From an archaeon (GTDB taxonomy: Archaea > EX4484-52 > B79-G9): 31,829 nt of DNA. Every line of letters begins with the position of its first letter. The stretch's first letter is position 1. Shown in pieces: positions 13-13,730 of this stretch. The notes under the pieces are model-generated. The model saw nothing but the letters and a program-made list of their open reading frames with translations, ran no database searches and was not told the origin of the DNA. The stretch is from contig JBDRKP010000064.1 of the NCBI GenBank assembly GCA_043813875.1, positions 1 to 31,829 of the forward strand, given 5' to 3'. Made by a program: the position numbers and the translations under genes.

Positions 13-1047
13 ATGACCAAAAAGGAAAACAAAAAACTACCTGACAATCAGATAACTGTTTACCAGACATCCGATGGGCAGATCAATATAGAGGTAATGT
101 ACGCTAATGAAAATATATGGCTGCCCCAAAAAAGAATGGCCGAGTTATTCGGATGCAGCACAGACAACATCTCTTTGCACCTTAAAAACATATATGCAGA
201 AAAAGAACTTGACGAATCTGCAACTTCCGAGGATTTCTCGGCAGTTCAAATCGAAGGAAGCAGAAAGGTTACAAGGAAAATTACATACTATTCCCTTGAA
301 GCAATCATCGCTGTGGGATACAGGGTAAACTCAGAACGCGGCACGCAATTCAGGCAATGGGCAATTTCAGTCCTTCAGCAATATATCCACAAAGGATTTG
401 CAATAGACAGCGACAGATTCAAATATGGCACCCGTTTCAGCGCACGCTATTTTGACGACCTGCTCGAAGAAATCCGGGATATCCGTTCCAGTGAGCGGAT
501 GTTATATCAGAAAATTACAGATATTTACGCCACTTCAATTGACTATTCGCCAAAAGCAGAGGATACAAAACAATTCTTTGCGGCAGTCCAGAACAAGCTC
601 CACTTTGCCATTACCAAAAAGACCGCTGCCCAAATCATTGCCGCACGAGCCAAAAGCGAGAAGCCAAACATGGGATTGACATCATGGCGAAAAGCACCTG
701 CCGGTAAAATCCTGCCCGGTGACATTGCTGTAGCGAAAAACTATCTGGACAAACCCGAGCTTGATCATTTGAACCGTATAGTTACACTATATCTTGACTT
801 TGCTGAATTGCAGGCAGTTCGCAACTCACCAATGTATATGAAAGACTGGATTGAGAAGCTGAATGCATTCCTGAAGTTCAGTGAATACGAAATACTCACC
901 AATGCCGGGCAGATAAGTCATGAAGTTGCTCTGGCTCTTGCCAGCAAAGAATATGAGATATTCAAAAAAAATCAGGATAAAAATTACATATCAGATTTTG
1001 ACAAAGAGATACAGCGCATCAAAGGTAAAAAAGATGACAAAAATTAA
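13..1047 (+). CDS. RhuM-family (virulence RhuM-like) DNA-binding protein
   Basis: 344 aa with family-typical segments ENIWLPQKRMAELF, NISLHLKNIYAEKELDE, YYSLEAIIAVGYRVNSERGTQFRQWA, YFDDLLEEIRDIRSSER, VQNKLHFAIT; overlaps the hsdR start. Confidence 0.85.
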   Translation: MTKKENKKLPDNQITVYQTSDGQINIEVMYANENIWLPQKRMAELFGCSTDNISLHLKNIYAEKELDESATSEDFSAVQIEGSRKVTRKITYYSLEAIIAVGYRVNSERGTQFRQWAISVLQQYIHKGFAIDSDRFKYGTRFSARYFDDLLEEIRDIRSSERMLYQKITDIYATSIDYSPKAEDTKQFFAAVQNKLHFAITKKTAAQIIAARAKSEKPNMGLTSWRKAPAGKILPGDIAVAKNYLDKPELDHLNRIVTLYLDFAELQAVRNSPMYMKDWIEKLNAFLKFSEYEILTNAGQISHEVALALASKEYEIFKKNQDKNYISDFDKEIQRIKGKKDDKN

Positions 1048-4000
1048 AATCACAGAATCAGAAATAGAACGATTCGCCATCGAATTACTGGAAAAGTCCG
1101 GCTACCAATACATCTATGCGCCGGATATTGCCCCGGATAGTAAAACACCACAGCGGGCAGGATTCGAAGATGTTTTACTGCTGGAACATCTGAAAAAAGC
1201 AGTCAAGAGAATCAATCCCGGCATTCCGGCCGACGCCAGGGAAGATGCCATAAAACAGATACAGCGCCTCAATTCTCCAGAACTTATCGCCAACAATGAA
1301 TCATTTCACAAAATGCTCACCGAAGGCATAAAGGTAAGCTATCAAAAAGAAGGATCCGACAGGGGTGATCTGGTCTGGCTCCTCGATTTCAATAATCCTG
1401 AAAACAATGAGTTTATTGTTGCCAATCAATTTACCATCATTGAAAATAATGTGAACAAACGGCCCGATATCATTCTTTTTGTCAACGGTCTACCGCTCGT
1501 GGTCATCGAGCTGAAAAACCCTGCTGACGAGAACGCAACTGTAAAAAGCGCATTCAATCAGTTGCAGACCTACAAACAGGCAATCCCCGGGCTTTTCAAT
1601 TACAATGGCTTCCTCATCATTTCCGATGGCCTTGATACACGAGCAGGGTCGATATCACTTGGTTTCAGCCGCTTCATGGCATGGAAATCATCCGACGGCA
1701 AAACAGAGGCATCGCATTTAACCAGTCAACTGGAAATCCTGATCAATGGAATGCTCAATAAAAACACATTGTTAGATATGATCAGGCATTTTATAGTATT
1801 TGAAAAATCGAAAAAAGAAGACACCGAAACCGGCATAATCACCATCCAGACAGTCAAGAAAATAGCATATTATCATCAATATTATGCCGTAAACAAAGCT
1901 GTTGAATCAACTATTCGCGCTGCTGCAATCAATGACAACCCAATGCTGATTAAAGATGCACCCGAGAACTATGGATTGATGAATGTAGCGACACAGGCAA
2001 AAGGGGACAGGCGCGGCGGCGTTGTCTGGCATACACAGGGAAGCGGAAAGTCGCTTTCCATGGTATTTTATACCGGTAAGATTGTCCTTGCATTGGATAA
2101 CCCTACTATTGTGGTAATAACCGACCGCAACGATTTAGACGACCAGCTTTTTGACACATTTGCCGCTTCAAAGCAGCTTCTCAGACAGGATCCAGTGCAG
2201 GCAGAAAACAGGGAGCATTTGAAAGAACTGCTAAACGTCGCATCGGGTGGCGTGGTATTTACCACAATACAGAAATTCCAGCCCGAAGAAGGAAACGTTT
2301 ACCCTGAGCTATCAGACAGAAAAAACATCATTGTGATAGCTGACGAAGCCCACCGGACACAATACGGCTTCAGGGCAAAAACCATTGATGTCAAAGATGA
2401 ACATGGAAACGTAATCGGCAAAAAAATTGTTTACGGCTTTGCGAAATACACTCGCGACGCCCTGCCCAACGCAACTTATCTGGGTTTCACCGGTACGCCG
2501 ATAGAAAAAACAGACGTGAACACGCCTGCTGTTTTCGGCAATTATGTTGATGTTTACGACATATCCCAGGCTGTCGAAGACGGCGCCACAGTAAGAATCT
2601 ATTACGAGAGCAGACTGGCAAAAATCACACTCAGCAAGAACGGCAAAAAACTGCTCAAAGAACTGGACGAAGAACTGGAAAAAGAAGACCTTGCAGAAAC
2701 CCAAAAAGCCAAAGCGAAATGGACGCAATTTGAAGCTTTGATTGGCAGCGAAGAGCGGATAAAGCAGGTTGCATCGGACATTGTAACTCATTTCGGGCAA
2801 AGGCAGGAAGTGTCTGAAGGCAAGGGACTGATTGTTGCAATGTCAAGAAGGATTGCCGCCAATCTGTACGATGAAATAATAAAAATCAAGCCGCAATGGC
2901 ACAACGACGACCTCAAAAAGGGCGTTATCAAAGTTGTGATGACATCTGCATCTTCTGACGGTCCAAAGATTTCAAAGCATCATACCACAAAAGAACAGAG
3001 ACGAACTTTGGCAGAAAGAATGAAAGATCCGGAAGACGAATTAAAATTAGTTATCGTGCGAGATATGTGGCTTACTGGTTTCGATGGTCCGTGCCTGCAC
3101 ACGATGTATATAGATAAGCCCATGAAAGGCCATACCCTTATGCAGGCAATTGCACGGGTGAACAGAGTCTATAAAGACAAGCCAGGCGGATTAGTTGTTG
3201 ATTATCTTGGAATTGCGTCCGATTTGAAAGAAGCGTTATCATTTTATTCAGATAGCGGTGGGAAAGGTGATCCTGCTGTTCTTCAGGAAAAAGCAGTTCA
3301 GATGATGCATGAAAAATTAGAAATTGTTTCCCAGATGTTTCATGGTTTTTCCTATGATCATTACTTTACAGCAGACACATCAACAAAGCTATCAATAATA
3401 CTCGCTGCACAAGAGCATATACTTGGCCTTGAAAATGGCAAGAAACGTTATATTGATGAAGTGACAGCATTGTCAAGCGCATTTTCTATCGCCATTCCGC
3501 ACGAGCAGGCAATGGATGTGAAGGATACAGTTTCGTTCTATCAGGCGGTAAAGGCCCGGCTTGTAAAATTTGACAGCACTGGAACAGGCAAAACCAACGA
3601 CGAAATTGAAACCGCAATCAGGCAAGTTATCGATCAGGCACTTGTAACTGAAAAAGTGATAGACGTGTTTGATGCCGCAGGAATTAAAAAACCGGACATT
3701 TCCATATTATCAGAAGAATTTCTTTTAGAAGTCCAAAACATGGAACACAAAAATATCGCTCTGGAAGTTCTAAAAAAGTTGCTCAATGATGAAATTAAAG
3801 CCAGAGTAAAGAAGAATCTGGTTCAAAGTCGAACATTGATGGAAATGCTCGAAGATTCTATTCAGAAGTATCACAACAAGATCATTACAGCAGTAGAAGT
3901 AATAGATAAACTGATTGAACTTGGTAAAGAGATAAAGAGGATGGACAAAGAGCCGCATGAAATGGGTTTGTCCGATTTTGAATACGCTTTTTATACCGCT

Positions 4001-4258
4001 ATTGCGGATAATGATGGCGCCAGAGAACTGATGCAAAAAGAAACATTGCGGGAATTGGCTGTTGTTTTATTTGAAAAGGTGAAACAAAATGCATCGATCG
4101 ATTGGACAATAAAGGAAAGCGTCAGGGCAAAATTAAAAGTAATTGTAAAACGTACATTAAGACAATATGGTTATCCTCCTGATATGCAGGCACTTGCAAC
4201 AGAAACAGTGCTAAAGCAGGCGGAATTGATTGCAGATGAAATAACCCGTAGAGGATAG
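1034..4258 (+). CDS. hsdR: Type I restriction endonuclease subunit R
   Basis: PD-(D/E)xK nuclease motif RPDIILFVNGLPLVVIELK, Walker A HTQGSGKS, DEAH box (ADEAHR), GFTGTP, DMWLTGFD, QAIARVNR. Start taken as ATG 1034 (MTKIKITESEIE) rather than the ORF-track start at 920. Confidence 0.95.
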   Translation: MTKIKITESEIERFAIELLEKSGYQYIYAPDIAPDSKTPQRAGFEDVLLLEHLKKAVKRINPGIPADAREDAIKQIQRLNSPELIANNESFHKMLTEGIKVSYQKEGSDRGDLVWLLDFNNPENNEFIVANQFTIIENNVNKRPDIILFVNGLPLVVIELKNPADENATVKSAFNQLQTYKQAIPGLFNYNGFLIISDGLDTRAGSISLGFSRFMAWKSSDGKTEASHLTSQLEILINGMLNKNTLLDMIRHFIVFEKSKKEDTETGIITIQTVKKIAYYHQYYAVNKAVESTIRAAAINDNPMLIKDAPENYGLMNVATQAKGDRRGGVVWHTQGSGKSLSMVFYTGKIVLALDNPTIVVITDRNDLDDQLFDTFAASKQLLRQDPVQAENREHLKELLNVASGGVVFTTIQKFQPEEGNVYPELSDRKNIIVIADEAHRTQYGFRAKTIDVKDEHGNVIGKKIVYGFAKYTRDALPNATYLGFTGTPIEKTDVNTPAVFGNYVDVYDISQAVEDGATVRIYYESRLAKITLSKNGKKLLKELDEELEKEDLAETQKAKAKWTQFEALIGSEERIKQVASDIVTHFGQRQEVSEGKGLIVAMSRRIAANLYDEIIKIKPQWHNDDLKKGVIKVVMTSASSDGPKISKHHTTKEQRRTLAERMKDPEDELKLVIVRDMWLTGFDGPCLHTMYIDKPMKGHTLMQAIARVNRVYKDKPGGLVVDYLGIASDLKEALSFYSDSGGKGDPAVLQEKAVQMMHEKLEIVSQMFHGFSYDHYFTADTSTKLSIILAAQEHILGLENGKKRYIDEVTALSSAFSIAIPHEQAMDVKDTVSFYQAVKARLVKFDSTGTGKTNDEIETAIRQVIDQALVTEKVIDVFDAAGIKKPDISILSEEFLLEVQNMEHKNIALEVLKKLLNDEIKARVKKNLVQSRTLMEMLEDSIQKYHNKIITAVEVIDKLIELGKEIKRMDKEPHEMGLSDFEYAFYTAIADNDGARELMQKETLRELAVVLFEKVKQNASIDWTIKESVRAKLKVIVKRTLRQYGYPPDMQALATETVLKQAELIADEITRRG

Positions 4259-4568: not shown

Positions 4569-7544
4569 ATGGGTATATTCAAGGGAAGAATTCTGCGCGT
4601 CGACCTCACGAAAAAAAATATAAGCGAGGAATATGCCGCCCCCAAAGACATACTAAGATACATCGGCGGCCGTGGCCTTGCAGCAAAAATACTCATCGAC
4701 GAACTCGACCCGAAAACAGATCCTCTTTCTGAAAAGAACATGATAATTCTCATGGCAGGCCCCCTGACAGGCCTTGCCCCAGCCTCAGGAAGATGCTCAT
4801 TCACGTCAAAATCCCCGCTTACCGGCACCATATTCGACTCGAACGTCGGCGGCTCCCTGGGTTATGAATTAAGAAAGACAGGCTACGACGGCGTCATAAT
4901 CACAGGCAGATCAGACACGCCTCTCTACCTTGAGATAACAGACAACAAGGCCGAGCTCAAAGACGCCAAACATCTCTGGACAAAGACCACAACAGAAACC
5001 ACAGAGCTCCTGGCCAAAGACAAATTCAAGGTCGCATGCATCGGTCCGGCAGGAGAGAATCTCGTATTATACTCATCGATAATCATAGACAGAAGCCGCG
5101 CAGCCGGCCGTGGGGGTCTTGGCGCAGTGCTCGGCTCAAAGAAGCTCAAGGCAATCGCCCTCAAAGGCACGCAAAAGATAGAGCCCGCAAACGAGTTCGC
5201 ATTCAGCGAACAGAAAAAACGCTTCCTTGAGATAATAAGAGGCCATCCGGTGACAGGAGACTCGCTCGGTCGTTTCGGCACCCTCGTTCTCATGAACCCC
5301 GTAAACAAGCACGGGATACTCCCCATAAACAACTTCCAGAAAGGCTTCTATGACAACGTGGAAAACATATCCGGCGAGACCATGCAGAAATACCTCACAA
5401 AAAAGACAGGATGCGCCCTCTGCCCCATAATGTGCGGAAGAGACGCTAACGTCGAAGGCGTAAAGACCCACGGTCCTGAATACGAAAGCACCTGGGCGCT
5501 CACAGTTCAGTGCGGTCACTCCGACGCAAAGACACTCGCCATCGCAAACAACCTCTGCAATGAATTAGGCCTTGACACCATAACCACAGGCAGCACAATC
5601 GGCTTTGCCATGGAATGCTCAGATAAAGGCCTCATCAAAGAAAAAATAACCTTCGGCGACACGAAAATAATCCCGGAACTCATAGAAAAGATCGCATACA
5701 AAAAAGACATCGGCGCACTCCTTTCAGAAGGCACCAAACGCATGGGAAAAAAACTGGGCGCAACCGACTTCGCGATAAACGTCAAAGGCCTCGAAATACC
5801 GGCATACGACCCACGCGGCGTAAAAGGCCAGGCATTGTCATACATGACATCAAACAGGGGCGGCTGCCACTTAAGAGCATACATGATCCCGCAGGAAGTG
5901 CTCTCCTCACCAAGATACTTAGACAACCTTGAGCTTGAGGACAAGGCAAGAAAGGTCCGCGACATCGAGAACATATTCGCAGTCATGGACTCGCTTGTCA
6001 TGTGCAAATTCACAACGATCGCAGTATTCGAGACATTCGACTACGAGATAGACATCTACGCAAGGATGCTCACGACCGCGACCGGCATGTACTTCGACGA
6101 AAAGGAGCTAAAGAAAGCAGGCGAGCGCATCTGGAACCTGGAGCGCCTCTTCAACACGAGAGCCGGCTTCACAAAAGAAGATGACCGGCTGCCGAAACGA
6201 TTTGAAGAGCCGATGCCGGAAGGCCCCGCAGAAGGCGAGACCGCAAAGATGGACAGTCTTCTCAGTGAATACTACACTCTCCGCGGCTGGGACGCATCAG
6301 GCATCCCGGAAGAGAAAAAACTGACAGCACTCAGCATAGATTTTGAAGAATCATGGCCGAAAAAGATAGTCTCTCTCAATCACGAATCACTGGAAGATGC
6401 CATATCAGACGCCAAAAAGAACCTCAAAAGCGGCGACTGGATAGAAGTGGCGTCCCCGCTCGTAAAAAGCCAGGGCGTCAACGCGATAATAGCGCTCAGG
6501 GCACTCTACCCTTACAAGACCATAATCGCAGACTACAAGACAATGGACACAGGATACCTAGAAGTCGAGATAGCGGCCCAGGCAGGCGCAGACATAGTCA
6601 CCATCTCAAGCCATGCAGGCAACCATACGATAATCGATGCCATCGGCGCAGCAAAGAAATACGGCGCAAAGATAATGATAGACCTCTTCGACGACATCAC
6701 GCGCGCAAAAGAAGTCGAGAAGCTCGGCGTGGACTACATCCGTGTATTCAAAAACGACATAATCGAAAAGCTTTCAAAAGAGATGAAGATACCGGTCGCA
6801 TCATTCATAGCATCAAAGCATGCAAAGCTGGCAGTCGAATCCTTCATCGACAAGGAACCTAAGGCGACAAAAAGAACAAAGACACCCGAGTTAGAGGGCA
6901 TCTGGCCGAAGCTCCAGGTAGCGCTTGACTTAAGGAACCTGAAAGAGGCCCTGAAGCTTGCCCGCGGCGCAAAAGAAGGCGGCGCACACTGGCTCGAAGT
7001 AGGGACGCCGCTGGTGAAAAGCGCAGGCATGGACGCGGTAAGAGAGATAAGAAAAGAGCACCCTGATTGCACCATCGTGGCTGACTTGAAGACATTAAGG
7101 AACGGCGGAAAAGAGGTCGCAATAGCGGCGCGTGCAGGCGCAGACATAATCGGCATCTGCGGCGCATCAGAGAACAGCATAATAAAAGACGCGATAAGGG
7201 CGGCAAAAGATTATAACGTGAAGATAATGGCTGACCTGATAGCAATAAAAGATCCTGTAGCCCGCGCAAAAGAGCTTGAAGACATGGGCGCAGACTACAT
7301 AGAATTCCATATTTCAGTCGACGAGCAGATGCGAAGCGGCAACGCGAAGATTCCGTTCCCTCTGGTCGAAAGCGTAGCAAAAGCCATAACGATACCGATG
7401 GGCGTCGCAGGCGGCATGAGAGCAGACACAGCGCCGCTCGCGATAAAGTCCGGCGCAAAGATTGCGGTAGTCGGCGGCTCTATAACGCGCGCAGCAGACC
7501 CGAAAAAAGCTTCGATAGTTATCCTGAAGGCCATCGGCAGATGA
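4569..7544 (+). CDS. Aldehyde:ferredoxin oxidoreductase (W/Mo-pterin, 4Fe-4S) fused to two tandem 3-hexulose-6-phosphate synthase/OMPDC-like domains
   Basis: Residues ~1-590 are AOR family (GRILRVDLT, YIGGRGL, KSPLTG, CIGPAGEN, GRGGLGAVLGSKKLKAI, CALCPIMC, GPEYES, GLDTI, YDPRG, RGGCHLR, LVMCKF, YYTLRGWD). Residues ~596-760 and ~779-991 are HPS-like (WIEVASPLVKSQG..ADYKTMDTG; LQVALD..WLEVGTPLVKSAG..ADLKT..VAGG..VVGGSIT). Confidence 0.9.
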   Translation: MGIFKGRILRVDLTKKNISEEYAAPKDILRYIGGRGLAAKILIDELDPKTDPLSEKNMIILMAGPLTGLAPASGRCSFTSKSPLTGTIFDSNVGGSLGYELRKTGYDGVIITGRSDTPLYLEITDNKAELKDAKHLWTKTTTETTELLAKDKFKVACIGPAGENLVLYSSIIIDRSRAAGRGGLGAVLGSKKLKAIALKGTQKIEPANEFAFSEQKKRFLEIIRGHPVTGDSLGRFGTLVLMNPVNKHGILPINNFQKGFYDNVENISGETMQKYLTKKTGCALCPIMCGRDANVEGVKTHGPEYESTWALTVQCGHSDAKTLAIANNLCNELGLDTITTGSTIGFAMECSDKGLIKEKITFGDTKIIPELIEKIAYKKDIGALLSEGTKRMGKKLGATDFAINVKGLEIPAYDPRGVKGQALSYMTSNRGGCHLRAYMIPQEVLSSPRYLDNLELEDKARKVRDIENIFAVMDSLVMCKFTTIAVFETFDYEIDIYARMLTTATGMYFDEKELKKAGERIWNLERLFNTRAGFTKEDDRLPKRFEEPMPEGPAEGETAKMDSLLSEYYTLRGWDASGIPEEKKLTALSIDFEESWPKKIVSLNHESLEDAISDAKKNLKSGDWIEVASPLVKSQGVNAIIALRALYPYKTIIADYKTMDTGYLEVEIAAQAGADIVTISSHAGNHTIIDAIGAAKKYGAKIMIDLFDDITRAKEVEKLGVDYIRVFKNDIIEKLSKEMKIPVASFIASKHAKLAVESFIDKEPKATKRTKTPELEGIWPKLQVALDLRNLKEALKLARGAKEGGAHWLEVGTPLVKSAGMDAVREIRKEHPDCTIVADLKTLRNGGKEVAIAARAGADIIGICGASENSIIKDAIRAAKDYNVKIMADLIAIKDPVARAKELEDMGADYIEFHISVDEQMRSGNAKIPFPLVESVAKAITIPMGVAGGMRADTAPLAIKSGAKIAVVGGSITRAADPKKASIVILKAIGR

Positions 7545-7603
7545 TTTCTTATCATTGAAAATGATCGAGAACCTTTACGATCATGCATTACTATGGTCAT
7601 CAT

Positions 7604-8782
7604 ATGAAGCGAAAAATAAATTCCCTCTTCTCTGAAAGGAGACTTATACTGGATTCCAGCATGGTCTTTTCTGCAAGTTTTATCGGCGCAATCTTCATGT
7701 TCGCATCAAGCGTCGCACTGTCGCGCATCTTCAGCCCGGAGATTTTCGGCAACTACAAGACGCTGGTCAATCTTTTTCTCTTCATTCCCGCGCTTCTTGA
7801 TTTCGGCGCATCCCCCACACTCACCAGATATATCGCCGGATTCATGGCAAAAAAAGAGGAAGGAAAGATCAACCGCATGATCCGGTTTTTCCTGAAGATC
7901 AAAGGGATATCGGTCCTTTCTGTATCTCTCATGATATATCTGTCTCGCGATGCCTTTGCAGGCACATTTTTGAAGGACTCTTCTCTCTCATACCTGATAG
8001 TGCCCGGCCTCCTGCTCTCAGTTTCCTTTTTATTTGACCTCACCAAGCCGGTGATATCGGGCCTGCAGGATTTCAGGCTTCTATCATTCTCGAATTTCCT
8101 CACTACAGCATGCATAGGGATATTCAGCATAGTGCTCGGCTATTATTACGGCGTCTATTACGCCCTGTTGGGCTGGTCGCTTGCTTATTTTGCAGGGAAC
8201 CTGCCCAATATTTATCATATATCGAAAAGACGGCTCTTCAGCAAAAACTCACTATCATTGGATATCGGCCCTATCTTCAGAAGCTATGCTCTTCCGATGC
8301 AGATGATGATGATATTGAACACATCAAGTCTGGCCGTGATTCCGGTCCTGAGCCTCTTCTTTGCCCAGAAGCTGATAGGATACTACGGCTTTGCATGGAC
8401 ATTTTACAGCGGGATAATGCTTGTCCCCATAACCTTTTCTCAGGTGCTTTTCCCTAAAGTAAGCGAGCTTAAGGCGAATAATAAAGCCACAAGAAGCTCC
8501 ATAGTCAGTATACTGGCTGTATACACGCTTATCGTACTGACAGGTGTTACGGCAATACATCTGTTCTCCCCCGAGATAATATCGCTTGTATCCGCAGCAT
8601 ATCTTCCGGGCCTCCATATATTCAGGTGGCTGAACATCGCCGGCCTGTTGCTTGGCTATCTGTTCATATACGCGAACTATCTGAGCGCAAAAGGCAGTAT
8701 AAGAAGCGCATCGATTGTCTTTTTTGTTATGAATATGGCGCTGTTTGCTGTGAGTTTTGCATTGCTTTTCAGTTGGGCATAA
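7604..8782 (+). CDS. Oligosaccharide flippase (Wzx/RfbX, MOP superfamily)
   Basis: Multi-pass hydrophobic protein with SRIFSPEIFGNY, LLDFGASPTLTRYIA, IGYYGFA and QVLFPKVS segments typical of Wzx-like flippases; adjacent to glycosyltransferases. Start may be 7583 or 7604. Confidence 0.8.
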   Translation: MKRKINSLFSERRLILDSSMVFSASFIGAIFMFASSVALSRIFSPEIFGNYKTLVNLFLFIPALLDFGASPTLTRYIAGFMAKKEEGKINRMIRFFLKIKGISVLSVSLMIYLSRDAFAGTFLKDSSLSYLIVPGLLLSVSFLFDLTKPVISGLQDFRLLSFSNFLTTACIGIFSIVLGYYYGVYYALLGWSLAYFAGNLPNIYHISKRRLFSKNSLSLDIGPIFRSYALPMQMMMILNTSSLAVIPVLSLFFAQKLIGYYGFAWTFYSGIMLVPITFSQVLFPKVSELKANNKATRSSIVSILAVYTLIVLTGVTAIHLFSPEIISLVSAAYLPGLHIFRWLNIAGLLLGYLFIYANYLSAKGSIRSASIVFFVMNMALFAVSFALLFSWA

Positions 8783-10253
8783 ACTTCCATATCCATATCA
8801 TTCTATTTGAATATACTTTATCCAAAAATACCATGGAATCATATTTTGATACAGACTCAATCGGCATCAAGAAATGAGGTGCATTAAGTATATCCAGTCC
8901 CCTTGTAAGCGAATGTTTCGATATTATAAAATAGTCTGTATTTTTTTCTCTAAATTCATCGTAAATCTCGCTTTCATCCGGGGTATAATATAACGCATTG
9001 ATTTTTGCAGTCATTCCATATTCCAATCCATTTACATCATAATAATGCAAGTATGATAATAATACATTCGCCAAAAATGTGTCCGTGAATATATTCTCCG
9101 ATTCTGTAGCGAACTGCAATCCGGAAATTGTAGCAGAATCATACTTTTCCAGGCTTCGTGGAGGTACAGTAAAATGGACTAAAGAGACAATAAGCAACGC
9201 TGTCACCAAAAATGTCAGAACGATTTTATTGTTCCATCTATATTTGTATAATTCATAAAATGTCAATACACCTAACAATGGTAAGAAGTAATCAAATGTT
9301 CTTGCAAACACATTCGTAAACCCCAAAAATATAGATAACAGGATAAAACTGAAAAAATATGACAGCACGAATTTATTCGTGGTTGATATTTTATTCATAT
9401 ATAGGAGTTTCAATTGAGTAAATATGAATACAATCGTCAATGGGAACAATATTGACTTTTCGATAATATACAGATAGAAGTATGTGCTTCTTTCATATGA
9501 TAATAGATAGAAAATTACTCGTTCAACAACTTTTGGAAAATTTTTACTGAAATCATTTATAATATTTCCACCAATCACTGAAACTATAACCAAAGATATC
9601 AATCCAATCATTGATATGATGATGGCATTTACTAGTATCTGCTTCTGATTCATGTTATGGTCAAATAAATTAAGAATCATATAACTTATGCTCGTAGCTA
9701 TTAGTATAACAAGAATTGCAAAAAAAGACGATGTGTGAGTAATGTATGTTGCTACCAATAACGGTAAGATGCACAAAATCGCCATTTTATTTTTAGTTTT
9801 TATATATTTTATAAGAAAAAACAATGACAAATAATAATAGAATATATAGCTATTAACTATGATGAATGTCGAGTTAGACAAAAAGACAATCGCTGCAAGT
9901 ATCCCTATAGATGTTGAGAAAAGTTCGCGAAATAGTAAGATTATAGAAAGCAAAGATATAGCAAGAAAGATATAAGGCAATATTCTATTCTGGTGTATTG
10001 TGATCTCCAAAACAGGTGATATGGGATTAACCGTATAAAAATAGACTCCATTTTTAAGATTATTTATGTATACATTATTATATTCCAATACCTCAAGACT
10101 CGGATTGAGATATAGTTCCTGTGCCAGGATAGATTGAAAATTGTATGAGCCGGAAGGATATAGGCTGCCTGCACCGCTGAAATATTGCATGCCCCATGCA
10201 AATATTATGACAAGCGAGATTGTTATGTAAATCTTTTGGTTCATATTGTTCAC
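8769..10253 (-). CDS. Polytopic membrane protein, possibly a GT-C-fold glycosyltransferase or glycan polymerase
   Basis: 494 aa, many hydrophobic stretches followed by a soluble C-terminal domain ending LDKVYSN..IW, as in archaeal membrane proteins of glycosylation clusters; visibly AT-rich. Confidence 0.55.
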   Translation of the reverse strand: MNNMNQKIYITISLVIIFAWGMQYFSGAGSLYPSGSYNFQSILAQELYLNPSLEVLEYNNVYINNLKNGVYFYTVNPISPVLEITIHQNRILPYIFLAISLLSIILLFRELFSTSIGILAAIVFLSNSTFIIVNSYIFYYYLSLFFLIKYIKTKNKMAILCILPLLVATYITHTSSFFAILVILIATSISYMILNLFDHNMNQKQILVNAIIISMIGLISLVIVSVIGGNIINDFSKNFPKVVERVIFYLLSYERSTYFYLYIIEKSILFPLTIVFIFTQLKLLYMNKISTTNKFVLSYFFSFILLSIFLGFTNVFARTFDYFLPLLGVLTFYELYKYRWNNKIVLTFLVTALLIVSLVHFTVPPRSLEKYDSATISGLQFATESENIFTDTFLANVLLSYLHYYDVNGLEYGMTAKINALYYTPDESEIYDEFREKNTDYFIISKHSLTRGLDILNAPHFLMPIESVSKYDSMVFLDKVYSNRMIWIWKFMPN

Positions 10254-10256
10254 CCA

Positions 10257-11357
10257 TTAGCCAAATACCTGCTTTAATTTCAAAGAGATAATGTCCAGCG
10301 AATATTTCGATTCCAGCCACGTTACATTCTTCACAGGTATGGTTTTTGTTGTGTATATATGTTCTAATGCACCTGCCAATCCACATTCATTCCTTGGTTT
10401 TATCACCACTCCGAGCCCATTTTCTGCAATCTCATCTGCTATTCCGGCAATCTCTGTAGTTATCACAGGAGTTCCACAGGCCAGTGCCTCAAGCAGGACC
10501 GTCCCAAATCCTTCTTGCTCACTTGATGTCGACGGGAGCACAAAAACATCCAGTTTGTTATAGAATTCCACTAATTTGTCATCCGGCACAAAGCCGAAAA
10601 ATTCCACACTTTGCGATATTCCAAGTTCATCTGCCATTTTTTTGTATTCTGGAAGCAGTGCGCCGCTACCACCGACCAACAATTTGACATCATGAACCTT
10701 TTCTTTTACTTGCGCTATCGCTTTTAATAGATAATCAAGACCTTTGTACCTGTGATACTCATCAAGGACAGCCAAAAATCCGACAGTATGGGGCTCTTTT
10801 TTGACTTTCATCGGTTTAAATCTATCAGTATCTACCCCCACAGGAATGACAACAATTTTGTCTTTGTATTTTTTCAAGGATGGAGAATAATCGAGATATT
10901 TTGGTTGCGTTATTATGATTTTATGCGCAACGCCAAGCACGATTTTTAGAAGTGTTGCATTGTAAATTTTTGCAATAATCGAAGTAAATCCTTTGCCGAC
11001 AATATCGTTATGATATGTGACAATAAGTTTTTTCCTTCTTAAAAATGCAATTATCGCGCTCCAGTCAGCACTCCAGGGCGTCGGCAAATGCGTGTGAATT
11101 ACGTCAAAATCCTCAAATAGTAGTTTGAAAGGCAAAAATTGGGTGACGTTGGTGTTTGCGATTTTTCCGATATATCCAAGTCTTTCGATTTTAATACCAT
11201 CTATATTATCTCGTTTTTTTGGTGATGTTGGTTCATTGGCGCAAATTACGATCACATCATGACCATTTTTAACCAATTCTTTAGATAAATCACGGACATA
11301 GTTTTCAACCCCACCTATAAACGGATAAAACCTTGCCGGTGTCTGTATAATTTTCAT
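10257..11357 (-). CDS. Glycosyltransferase family 4 (GT-B)
   Basis: FYPFIGGVE, DVIHTH, KGLDYLLKA, DVFVLPS..EGFGTVLLEALACGTPVI (E-x7-E motif). Confidence 0.92.
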   Translation of the reverse strand: MKIIQTPARFYPFIGGVENYVRDLSKELVKNGHDVIVICANEPTSPKKRDNIDGIKIERLGYIGKIANTNVTQFLPFKLLFEDFDVIHTHLPTPWSADWSAIIAFLRRKKLIVTYHNDIVGKGFTSIIAKIYNATLLKIVLGVAHKIIITQPKYLDYSPSLKKYKDKIVVIPVGVDTDRFKPMKVKKEPHTVGFLAVLDEYHRYKGLDYLLKAIAQVKEKVHDVKLLVGGSGALLPEYKKMADELGISQSVEFFGFVPDDKLVEFYNKLDVFVLPSTSSEQEGFGTVLLEALACGTPVITTEIAGIADEIAENGLGVVIKPRNECGLAGALEHIYTTKTIPVKNVTWLESKYSLDIISLKLKQVFG

Positions 11358-11360
11358 ATC

Positions 11361-11945
11361 TTATTCCACCCTGCCAGTTCCAACCGTGACTATGTTTTCT
11401 TTGGTATTTATGTCAATTCGTTTTCCTGTAGGAGGATGCCACCATCCCAACCGAATGTAAGTATTTTGAGGCATTAAGTTATTCGGAACTTTGTGTATTT
11501 GAACATTTTTGTATATCTCTCCGGTTTTCCACAACGTAGTCTTCGGTTCAGGCGCATAATCCCCCTGGAACAATATCCTCCCATCTTCATCCGTAAAATG
11601 CACAAACACAACATAATCCTTGTCCATGTTATCGAGCGCCTTCCAATAATATGTAATCTCAAAAATATCATTCGGATGCAGAAGAGTCTCATTGATATCA
11701 TACCCCATAAACATGATCTTGTAGTCAAAAATCACAGAAAAGTTATGGTGGCCTGGCCGAGTGATATTGGCATACGGATCCAGAACCTGTAATCCTTCAT
11801 CCTGTCCAGTATAAGTTGGAGTTTCATTTCTGTTTGTCAGCACAACATAGCCAACATTGGCAGGCTTCATAAGATACATTAATGACAATAGTACGATGCT
11901 TACAATGATTACGCGGACCCACTTAATCTTTCTTTTTCCCATCAT
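11361..11945 (-). CDS. Membrane-anchored hypothetical protein with a predicted beta-sandwich extracellular domain
   Basis: N-terminal TM helix, then EITYYWKAL..YVVFVHFTDEDG..QGD..P..WKTGE..IRLGWW..TGKR, resembling Ig-like domains appended to membrane glycosyltransferases. Confidence 0.55.
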   Translation of the reverse strand: MMGKRKIKWVRVIIVSIVLLSLMYLMKPANVGYVVLTNRNETPTYTGQDEGLQVLDPYANITRPGHHNFSVIFDYKIMFMGYDINETLLHPNDIFEITYYWKALDNMDKDYVVFVHFTDEDGRILFQGDYAPEPKTTLWKTGEIYKNVQIHKVPNNLMPQNTYIRLGWWHPPTGKRIDINTKENIVTVGTGRVE

Positions 11946-13074
11946 AAATCACATTCCTATAAACCTCCCCTGTCCTCTTCGCGCTCTCATCCCAGCCATA
12001 CTTCCTTGCGCTCTCCTTTCCATTCTTACCCATCCCGGCATCCTCACCCATAAGAATATCCGCAATCCTCCCCGCGATCTCTTCTGCAGAAAGCTTCACG
12101 ACATACCCGTTCTCCGTATCGATAACAAGCTCCTTCGCCGCATTCGATGGATCCTCGACAGTAATCACCGGAAGCCCGCATCCATGCGCCTCAACAACCA
12201 CCATCCCGAATCCCTCGCGCGTAGACGGCAGGACAAAAACCTTTGCCACCTTCATATAAGAGAAGACATCATCAACAGAATCAAGAAAACATATCTTCTC
12301 CTTGACCCCCATCTTCAAAGCAAGCTCAACAAGCCTCTTTTTCTCGGACCCTTTCCCGATTATCCCGACACTGACACGCGGAAACTTCTTATTCACAATA
12401 GCCGTAGCCTCAATAAGTACATCAATATTCTTGTGCTTGATCAGCCTTCCGGCATACAGCACATCAAACTTCTCAGCCGATTCACCGGCTTTATCGATCT
12501 TATAAAAATCAACACCATTCGGGATAACAGTCATATCATCCGCCGAAACACCCATCTCAAGAAGCTTCTTTCGCGTATGCTCAGACACAACAACATACTT
12601 GTCATGCATCCTGACCGCAGCCCGTTCCACAAAATAGCCGATATGCCCCTTAACATATCCCAGATAATCACGCCAGTATTTCCTCCCCCATACCTCATGC
12701 CACGTAGCCACAAGAGGCTTCTTCTTAAGAATGCAATATGATTTTGCGACAAAAAGAGGAAAAAAAGGAAACTGGCTGCAATCAATGACATCATAATCCT
12801 CATCAAAAAGAGGCTTGACCAATTTCATGGAAAAATAAACCGCCTGCGATATCTTCCTCTTCCCGCGAGAATCATATAACTCCACTGGTTCACAGACACC
12901 GTGAAGGACAAGATTATCATTGACCTTGAGATCCTTATCTCCATCCCACCACTTCATGCAATATACATGCACCTCATGAGATTGAGACAATCTTTCAGCA
13001 ATCTCGCTGATCCTCTTCTCCACACCGCCCTTGACATAAGGGTAATAGACATCCGTAATCATAGCTATTCTCAT
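11923..13074 (-). CDS. Glycosyltransferase family 4 (GT-B)
   Basis: YYPYVKGGVEKR, VIPNGVD, YAGRLIKHKN, VFVLPSTREGFGMVVVEAHGCGLPVI. Confidence 0.92.
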   Translation of the reverse strand: MRIAMITDVYYPYVKGGVEKRISEIAERLSQSHEVHVYCMKWWDGDKDLKVNDNLVLHGVCEPVELYDSRGKRKISQAVYFSMKLVKPLFDEDYDVIDCSQFPFFPLFVAKSYCILKKKPLVATWHEVWGRKYWRDYLGYVKGHIGYFVERAAVRMHDKYVVVSEHTRKKLLEMGVSADDMTVIPNGVDFYKIDKAGESAEKFDVLYAGRLIKHKNIDVLIEATAIVNKKFPRVSVGIIGKGSEKKRLVELALKMGVKEKICFLDSVDDVFSYMKVAKVFVLPSTREGFGMVVVEAHGCGLPVITVEDPSNAAKELVIDTENGYVVKLSAEEIAGRIADILMGEDAGMGKNGKESARKYGWDESAKRTGEVYRNVIYDGKKKD

Positions 13075-13730
13075 AACTCCAACCTCAATTTAAAAAGATA
13101 CAAAAGATTCATGACGCCGTCATAATAGCTCTCAAGCTTCGCCTCACCGATACGCTCCCTGTACGCGGTCGGCACCTCCATGAACCGCAGCCCATTTCTT
13201 ATGACCTTGATCTTGAACTCCTCAGAAAACGTCATCCCTCTAGACCTAAGTTCGACCTTGTCAAGGACATCTCTCCTGAACACCCACATCCCGCTCTGCG
13301 AATCACGCATGTGCGTCCCGAAAAGCGCATTCGTAAAAACCGTCAGCACCCCGTTCCCGAACCTGTGCTTAAGCCCCATGACGGATTTATATTCACGTGC
13401 ACACGAGATGAAATCGACATCCTCATCATAAAGCATATCTATCAGCCCGGGAACGGCATCAGCAGGGTATGTCCCGTCCCCGTCCATGCAGACAACCACA
13501 TCAGCATCCTTTGGCAGCCTCGAAAAACCCGTCATATAAGCCCTACCATAACCGTTTCTCTTTTCATAGACCACCGTGGCCCCCAAAGACCTGGCAAGAG
13601 CTGCGGTCTCATCGTCTGAGCCGTCTACAACAATGATATCGCGTATGCCGTTCGACCTAAGTTCCTCTATGACAACCTTGATGCCCAAAGATTCATTCTT
13701 GGCAGGAATAATAACAACAGCCTTTCTCAC
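13071..13730 (-). CDS. Glycosyltransferase family 2, dolichol/polyprenol-phosphate hexose synthase-like
   Basis: VIIPAKNE, IIVVDGSDD, GYGRA, DxD motif MDGDGTYP, DSQSGM, EVPTAYRERIGEAKL; GTG start. Confidence 0.9.
   Translation of the reverse strand: MRKAVVIIPAKNESLGIKVVIEELRSNGIRDIIVVDGSDDETAALARSLGATVVYEKRNGYGRAYMTGFSRLPKDADVVVCMDGDGTYPADAVPGLIDMLYDEDVDFISCAREYKSVMGLKHRFGNGVLTVFTNALFGTHMRDSQSGMWVFRRDVLDKVELRSRGMTFSEEFKIKVIRNGLRFMEVPTAYRERIGEAKLESYYDGVMNLLYLFKLRLEL

Follow-up and report, generated by a model that had tools for sequence, protein, structure and literature searches.

The open reading frame (ORF) at 4569..7544 (+) of contig JBDRKP010000064.1 (31,829 nucleotides, forward strand; this whole stretch is called the window below), which comes from an archaeon of the GTDB lineage EX4484-52; B79-G9 (assembly GCA_043813875.1), translates as a single protein of 991 amino acids (aa) in three parts: an aldehyde:ferredoxin oxidoreductase (AOR) domain (residues 1-590) and two barrels related to hexulose-6-phosphate synthase (HPS), barrel 1 (596-760) and barrel 2 (779-991), the pair making up the C-terminal 40% of the chain. 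We propose that the two barrels constitute a single-chain HPS pseudo-dimer that originated by internal duplication and holds one composite active site, a reading to which we give a probability of about 0.7. The pseudo-dimer is supported by comparative and predictive evidence, from which we infer that D660 of barrel 1 acts in trans and that there is a single active site, as well as the reaction, its direction and its coupling to the AOR domain. The OMPDC suprafamily is a standard example of enzymes whose active sites span a homodimer interface; the last Asp of the DxKxxD motif enters the site of the partner subunit in OMPDC, in KGPDC and, by homology, in HPS. An earlier description made from the letters of the DNA alone (the sequence-only reading) had presented 6354..7544 as tandem HPS barrels with complementary losses of catalytic residues. 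Translation and alignments to HPS placed every motif that it named at the coordinates it gave, but it had omitted the AOR domain that the same ORF encodes at 4569-6338.

Relatives were collected by a word-indexed search with residues 591-991 as the query, which returned 58 proteins among 7996 candidates scored. Ten of them, the window's own protein included, were AOR-fused double-barrel proteins of 988-1014 aa, which covered 98-100% of the two-barrel query and were 50-80% identical to it over the two barrels. The remaining 48 were single-barrel AOR-HPS fusions of 562-859 aa. Moreover, two AOR-free double-barrel proteins, P0059 (393 aa) and P0061 (353 aa), were found in a scan of representatives and had the same reciprocal pattern, giving 12 double-barrel proteins for comparison. 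P0059 has its own start Met and groups with the type of P0008-P0010.

Barrel 2 is a nearly full-length match to known HPS. Its residues 782-986 matched positions 1-202 of 205 of NCBIfam TIGR03128 (E 1.6e-54), the solved HPS chains 9lj9 and 3ajx were matched at E 1.2e-57 and 2.3e-38, and a Foldseek search found 3ajx_A (E 1.7e-17, target TM 0.95, root-mean-square deviation 1.4 over 209 columns) and 9lj9_A (E 5.5e-18). The barrel begins at W779 and continues through VALD (D787), EVGTP (E810), IMADL (D889), EFH (H914), VAGG (G948-G949) and VVGGSIT (G969-T973). Catalytic positions were mapped through HMMER alignments to 3ajx and the residue table in the accessible text of PMC5980557, which lists D8, E30, D59, K61, D64, D109, H134 and two Gly loops as the active site of 3ajx and also treats KGPDC 1xbv. 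We found that D787, E810, D839, K841, D889 and H914 align with D8, E30, D59, K61, D109 and H134 of 3ajx, and that G948-G949 and G969-G970 align with its Gly loops; all of these residues were invariant in the 12 barrel-2 copies. The sole catalytic residue absent from barrel 2 is the last Asp of DxKxxD, which is replaced by R844. Its modelled fold and its cis residues thus place barrel 2 within the HPS / OMPDC suprafamily.

Barrel 1, which starts at W596 (encoded at 6354), has the opposite pattern. Its residues 596-727 matched positions 5-132 of 205 of TIGR03128 (E 1.4e-32) and it aligned to 9lj9 (residues 5-136) and 3ajx, and it keeps a complete DYKTMD (D655-D660, 6531-6548). However, the strand-1 Asp is replaced by N604 (VSLN), and this position was occupied by N in eight, Q in two, and F and E in one each of the 12 barrel-1 copies. 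The position of the catalytic His (F727 in YIRVF) was F, M, H, L, C or S, with His in only one of the 12 (P0005). Relaxed selection on a dead pocket would give such variation at the strand-1 and His positions. After strand 6, all 12 copies were about 15 residues shorter than barrel 2 and single-barrel HPS, and all had lost helices 7 and 8; in the window's protein IPVASFIAS takes the place of the AGG loop, no G-G follows strand 7, and the strand-8 VGGxIT loop is missing. Besides D660, barrel 1 retains E626 (WIEVASP), D655, K657 and D705 (IMIDL). The AlphaFold2 model gave it eight strands, the last two of which (7 and 8) make a hairpin, but only six helices, and so describes a closed but stripped barrel, not a fragment. 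Judged by its residues, barrel 1 is related to HPS by descent and appears to be no working HPS.

The sequence-only reading had suggested asking whether homologues conserve this reciprocal pattern, and they do. All ten AOR-fused proteins carried D-x-K-x-M-D in barrel 1 and D-L-K-T-L-x in barrel 2, where x was R (three), S (four), C, A or K. The corresponding motifs were DLKTMD then DLKTLS in P0059, and DLKIMD then DMKTLE in P0061, and both motifs were also present in all nine orthologous loci from related genomes. Over the 12 double-barrel proteins, the last-Asp position of barrel 2 was R in three, S in five, and C, A, K and E in one each, never Asp, and D-x-K-x-M-D-T-G was kept in barrel 1 of every one. 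Just 18 residues of barrel 1 were invariant in the 12-sequence alignment, seven of which (D655, K657, M659, D660, T661, G662, and E665) lie in or beside this motif; of the barrel 2 equivalents, positions 844-846 vary, and single barrels carry D-T-G there. DxKxxD was intact in all 48 single-barrel AOR-HPS proteins (47 by pattern search and the N-terminally cut P0057 by alignment). As a family-wide control, 149 further representatives (P0059-P0207) were aligned to the single-barrel profile, yielding 156 HPS-type domains. The Lys of DxKxxD was present in 156 of 156, and the last Asp position was D in 149, S in five, and E in two. Six of the seven exceptions were downstream modules of tandem chains in which the upstream module has the Asp (P0059, P0061, P0060, P0079, P0124, and P0127), and the seventh, P0143, was a stand-alone protein with D changed to E. 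Therefore, in this sample the Asp has been lost essentially only where a module of the same chain can supply it.

Predicted structures point in the same direction. AlphaFold2 modelled residues 591-991 (48-row alignment) with a mean pLDDT of 95.6 and a pTM of 0.93, and the full-length protein (52 rows) with 93.0 and 0.86; the lowest blocks of the full-length model, at pLDDT 74 and 68, were in the linker (761-780). Foldseek matched the two-barrel model to a single barrel at a time, with a query TM of about 0.5. When barrel 1 (596-768) and barrel 2 (776-991) were given to ESMFold2 as separate chains, the complex was predicted with ipSAE values of 0.93, 0.93, and 0.92, against 0.00 for the best of three controls; the ipSAE mark applied is one that 58 of 80 solved complexes and 2 of 110 mismatched pairs attained, counts that are approximate given the custom alignment. 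The runs agreed in at least 93% of contacts, with partner pLDDT of at least 92 and 96-109 contacts. We found that 23 of the 33 interface residues on each side were at equivalent aligned positions (4.9 expected; hypergeometric P ~1e-17), and the interface is thus isologous and on the catalytic face. Whether the barrels pack like the homodimer had been raised in the sequence-only reading, and the answer of these predictions is that they do. Contacts unique to barrel 2 were T842, A892, H914, and the loop 916-923, six loop residues of which have no counterpart in barrel 1. In the model, pseudo-symmetry would set the M659-D660-T661 loop opposite D787 and K841, as it would set the L843-R844-N845 loop opposite N604, K657, and D705.

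Based on these results, a composite site can be pictured as follows. An HPS module would have been duplicated inside an ancestral AOR-HPS fusion, so that a single chain came to hold, as a pseudo-dimer, both halves of what had been a homodimer. Barrel 2 would bring the cis half of the site, that is, the strand-1 Asp D787, the Mg ligands E810 and D839, K841, D889, the base H914, and the phosphate loops; HPS is described in the accessible part of PMC10176493 as using a Mg-stabilised enediolate and a His base. Barrel 1 would use the normal isologous dimer interface to pack on barrel 2's catalytic face, inserting its M659-D660-T661-G662 loop and supplying the Asp otherwise given by a partner subunit. 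The pocket of barrel 1 itself would be dead, without the strand-1 Asp, the His and the phosphate loops, and because it is dead the Asp of barrel 2 would have been free to be lost (R844). The outcome would be one composite HPS site per chain. If this is true, the protein is a natural fused pair with complementary losses, in which an obligate homodimer has become a catalytic subunit and a helper pseudo-subunit, and comparing D660 with R844 would be a clean test, supplied by nature, of what the trans Asp does.

Several observations weigh against this reading. The 12 double-barrel proteins share one origin, and 12 of 12 therefore does not count independent events; one of them, P0061, has an acidic residue, Glu, at the last-Asp position of barrel 2. 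Barrel 2 alone scored 184.7 bits, under the TIGR03128 (RuMP_HxlA) cut-off of 200; the whole protein reached 281.6 bits, but this is the sum of two stretches, with barrel 1 alone at 113.1. D660 was absent from the 25 contact pairs listed for the predicted complex, and that prediction covered the pairing of barrel 1 with barrel 2. AlphaFold2 and the complex predictions may also echo remembered HPS and KGPDC homodimers, in which case they would speak of likeness, not of binding. No open text describing a trans role for the last Asp was found, and that role is taken here as background. Moreover, the earlier statement that barrel 1 supplies only the trans Asp was too strong: D655, K657, and D705 are invariant in all 12 barrel-1 copies and would be left unexplained, and Glu at the E626 position is found in seven of 12 (Gly or Cys in the other five).

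Part of these data could also be read as showing a barrel 1 that is a structural pseudo-subunit, one that fills the dimer interface with a non-catalytic D660 next to a barrel 2 that works without a trans Asp. So large a predicted interface would be enough to justify keeping barrel 1, and the retained D655, K657, and D705 fit structural conservation of the loop and the strand. Nevertheless, no block of barrel 1 is more conserved than the M-D-T-G loop and the same loop varies in barrel 2, and six of the seven Asp losses among the 156 domains have an Asp-keeping module in the chain, which points to one Asp per site; we therefore regard a purely structural role as unlikely. It is less probable still that the pocket of barrel 1 has come to serve a new purpose, in regulation, in ligand binding or as a conduit between HPS and AOR, whether alongside Asp donation or in its place. 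An analogy is found in single-chain pseudo-dimeric cyclases, whose second site is degenerate; E626, D655, K657, and D705 persist in a pocket that can no longer hold a sugar phosphate as HPS usually does, the AOR domain runs at its C terminus directly into barrel 1, and the full-length pTM of 0.86 suggests a fixed arrangement of the three parts in the model. On the other hand, E626 is changed to Gly or Cys in five of 12 copies and the strand-1 and His positions vary, which speaks against a conserved new site.

The history of the two barrels is consistent with an old duplication followed by constraint. They are 45% identical over 152 aa (E 5e-36), and both open with W-P-K, so the duplicated unit took in the last part of the AOR-HPS linker. 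At the DNA level they share no more than short in-register remnants, the longest being 38 nucleotides at 74% identity, and the duplication is therefore old and not an assembly artefact. The architecture recurs in nine other genomes and in seven records of metagenome-assembled genomes (MAGs). Considering the protein identity, the short remnants, and this recurrence, we rejected both an assembly artefact and a recent duplication. Mean pairwise identity over 135 shared columns (45 pairs) was 56% for barrel 1 and 68% for barrel 2, which suggests that barrel 1 changes faster than barrel 2 yet is clearly constrained, not decaying. That barrel 1 is instead a decaying remnant or spacer, with barrel 2 acting alone or paired with barrel 2 of a second chain (e.g., across an AOR dimer), is very improbable: the loss of several catalytic residues, two helices, and one loop, the faster evolution, and the scope of the complex prediction would suit it, but all 12 proteins, down to 45% identity, have kept barrel 1 with shared deletions and DxKxMDTG invariant, barrel 1 is modelled at pLDDT >90, and a barrel 2 homodimer would have an Asp at 844 in neither site.

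In a tree of 68 barrels (139 columns), barrel 1 and barrel 2 each formed a clade (SH-aLRT 94 and 98), and an identical internal split occurred within the two, a topology that fits one duplication followed by co-divergence. Barrel 2 nested among P0011-P0017, single barrels of the Thermoplasmata type, one of them from a record with Thermoplasmata in its title. The barrel 1 clade was on a long branch that the tree did not place; barrel 1 may have arisen by duplication of the ancestor of barrel 2 or have been acquired from another lineage.

With regard to function, the chain as a whole would most likely cleave hexulose 6-phosphate to ribulose 5-phosphate and formaldehyde, and the AOR domain would oxidise the formaldehyde to formate with ferredoxin. 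The AOR-HPS fusion probably couples the release of formaldehyde to its oxidation, and it may explain formaldehyde disposal (during pentose synthesis by the reverse ribulose monophosphate route) in small anaerobic archaea without Fae. A bolder extension, which we consider to have a small chance of being right, is that tandem HPS pseudo-dimers are recurrent, given the like pattern of Asp loss in the second tandem class described below, and that the dead pocket of barrel 1 hands formaldehyde between the HPS site and the tungsten centre, with the reverse direction possible. The pocket, wedged between the AOR domain and the live HPS site, would then be a gated path or a binding site, and in the reversed direction formate would be converted to formaldehyde and on to hexulose 6-phosphate with reduced ferredoxin.

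Compared with known systems, barrel 2 shares the fold and all cis active-site residues of HPS (M. gastri 3AJX; HPS-PHI 9LJ9) and KGPDC (1KV8). HPS and KGPDC homodimers have an isologous interface on the catalytic face, like the predicted barrel-barrel interface; here, in contrast, there would be one chain with inequivalent halves and one site instead of two. The single-barrel AOR-HPS proteins (P0011-P0058), which record titles assign to Thermoplasmata, Hodarchaeota, Nezhaarchaeales, Thermoprotei, and Methanomethyliaceae, resemble the window's protein in the AOR domain and in the linker, which closes with W/Y-P-K just ahead of the barrel. Their only barrel retains a complete DxKxxD, and they presumably need a second chain per site, whereas the window's clade has an extra degenerate barrel between the AOR domain and the active barrel. 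Methanogen Fae-Hps (NF009833) and Hps-Phi (NF041755) are likewise fusions of HPS with an enzyme that handles its product or substrate, and Fae-Hps pairs HPS with a formaldehyde-consuming partner; the partner here is AOR, not Fae or PHI. In fact, the protein scored below both models, with 181.1 bits against a cut-off of 274 for Fae-Hps and 275.3 against 500 for Hps-Phi, and Pfam and NCBIfam found no Fae or SIS domain in the 991-aa ORF. The C1-C2 pair of mammalian adenylyl cyclase, compared with homodimeric class III cyclases, is a fused pair with complementary losses and one composite site; its fold and chemistry are unrelated to those of the HPS pair, and the analogy is one of working only.

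A second class of tandem HPS proteins (P0060, P0079, P0124, and P0127) keeps x-K-P-[ML]-D-[TI]-G upstream and has D-[LI]-K-x-I-S downstream, with the last Asp lost. Its upstream module ends after about strand 5 and its downstream module lacks strands 1-2; AOR is absent, and SIS (PHI-like) domains occur in some members. Such proteins could be pseudo-dimers of partial barrels or single barrels with a duplicated segment. The class was also seen at G026:C6:1745-2740 and G034:C28:16340-17311, and P0060 adds a third full barrel and a SIS domain. Neither an AOR-HPS fusion nor an HPS pseudo-dimer was found described in the literature searched, with subscription journals and supplements outside the search; the accessible parts of the papers found mention HPS-PHI, Fae-HPS, and separate AORs, without an AOR-HPS fusion.

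Table 1. Features of the AOR-HPS protein and of HPS-like matches in same-genus genomes.
Feature	Position	Strand	Basis
AOR domain, residues 1-590	4569..6338	+	Pfam AFOR_N + AFOR_C
Barrel 1, degenerate HPS barrel, residues 596-760	6354..6848	+	TIGR03128 5-132/205; 9lj9 match
N604 in VSLN, strand-1 Asp position, lost	6378..6380	+	Alignment: Asp in 0/12 barrel-1 copies
Barrel 1 motif D655-Y-K657-T-M659-D660-T661-G662; D660 = proposed trans Asp	6531..6554	+	Conservation, predicted interface
F727 in YIRVF, catalytic His position, lost	6747..6749	+	Alignment of 12
Barrel 1 strands (predicted)	Residues 598-604, 624-627, 651-658, 676-680, 701-706, 723-726, 743-745, 754-760		AlphaFold2
Lys/Glu-rich inter-barrel linker, residues 761-778	6849..6902	+	Variable in 12-sequence alignment; low pLDDT
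Barrel 2, complete HPS barrel, residues 779-991	6903..7541	+	TIGR03128 1-202/205; 9lj9, 3ajx matches
Barrel 2 motif D839-L-K841-T-L-R844, last Asp replaced by Arg	7083..7100	+	Translation, motif comparison
H914, catalytic His of barrel 2	7308..7310	+	Aligned with 3ajx H134; in predicted interface
Predicted interface, barrel 1	N604, E606, A628-P630, V632-N638, Y656, K657, M659-E665, I668, A669		ESMFold2
Predicted interface, barrel 1 (continued)	S680, H682-G684, H686, T687, I689, D690, D705, F707		ESMFold2
Predicted interface, barrel 2	D787, R789, T813, P814, V816-D822, L840-N845, K848, E849, I852, A853		ESMFold2
Predicted interface, barrel 2 (continued)	C864, A866, I891, A892, H914, S916-E919, M921-S923		ESMFold2
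HPS-like matches with in-frame stops	G003:C20:3549-4175, G006:C62:6832-7461, G007:C104:2016-2654

The N-terminal part of the protein matched Pfam AFOR_N over residues 6-201 (E 1.7e-76; 256.8 bits against a cut-off of 29.8) and AFOR_C over residues 217-590 (E 5e-136; 454.3 bits against 27), and Pfam located two OMPdecase/HUMPS stretches C-terminal to AFOR_C. The nearest solved chains for this part were the AOR structures 9g7j (5.4e-154) and 1aor (5e-152), against 1.2e-103 for FOR 1b25, and the Cys residues of the cluster, CxxCxxxC and a fourth Cys, line up with those of 9g7j. Its domains and cluster Cys residues identify residues 1-590 as a member of the AOR family. The overlapping ORFs at 6353..6862 (+), 6734..7180 (-), and 6859..7458 (-) were read as by-products of the long coding frame.

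The source genome measures 1.64 Mb and is 91.5% complete; no Fae was found in this 91.5% complete genome. A separate, stand-alone PHI gene is present in it (contig C69), and so is a second, canonical HPS, encoded by a 442-aa ORF (L001 814..2142 (-) = G000:C39) with its motifs intact (VALD, EVGTP, DMKTVD, FH, AGG, and IIGSAIT). The C-terminal half of that ORF is presumed to be RraA-like, by analogy with the architecture of NCBIfam PRK07028 (HPS/ribonuclease regulator). Close orthologues of the window's protein occur in MAGs titled Candidatus Nanohalarchaeota. In the accessible part of a comparison of DPANN genomes (PMC8407392), HxlA and HxlB are annotated in Altiarchaeota and absent from other DPANN phyla; unlike the non-Altiarchaeota DPANN in that part, this genome has both HPS and PHI, and fused or divergent HPS/PHI forms may have been missed by annotation in DPANN.

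One orthologue (G034:C28:9565-10764), 71% identical, comes from a genome of another family (f6) in the same order. Among the remaining three genomes of its genus none had a full two-barrel match, two of them having weaker partial HPS matches and one none, and lateral transfer or binning could account for this distribution. A third HPS-like match of about 217-221 aa has one or two in-frame TAA/TAG stops in three same-genus genomes (Table 1), and its counterparts in G002 and G004 have none; the stop-bearing copies may be pseudogenes or reflect sequencing errors.

The neighbours of the AOR-HPS ORF (a RhuM-family gene, a type I restriction R subunit, and a glycosyltransferase cluster) offer no pathway context. 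The RhuM-family gene is at 13..1047 and is followed by the R-subunit ORF at 920..4258; because the listed R-subunit ORF overlaps the RhuM ORF by 128 nucleotides, its real start is probably further downstream. The stretch 7583-13730 encodes a flippase-type polysaccharide-biosynthesis membrane protein, three glycosyltransferases (two of GT4, one of GT2), and a multi-pass membrane protein of 494 aa that matched nothing in Pfam. The GC content of the window falls to 0.30 at 9001-10000.

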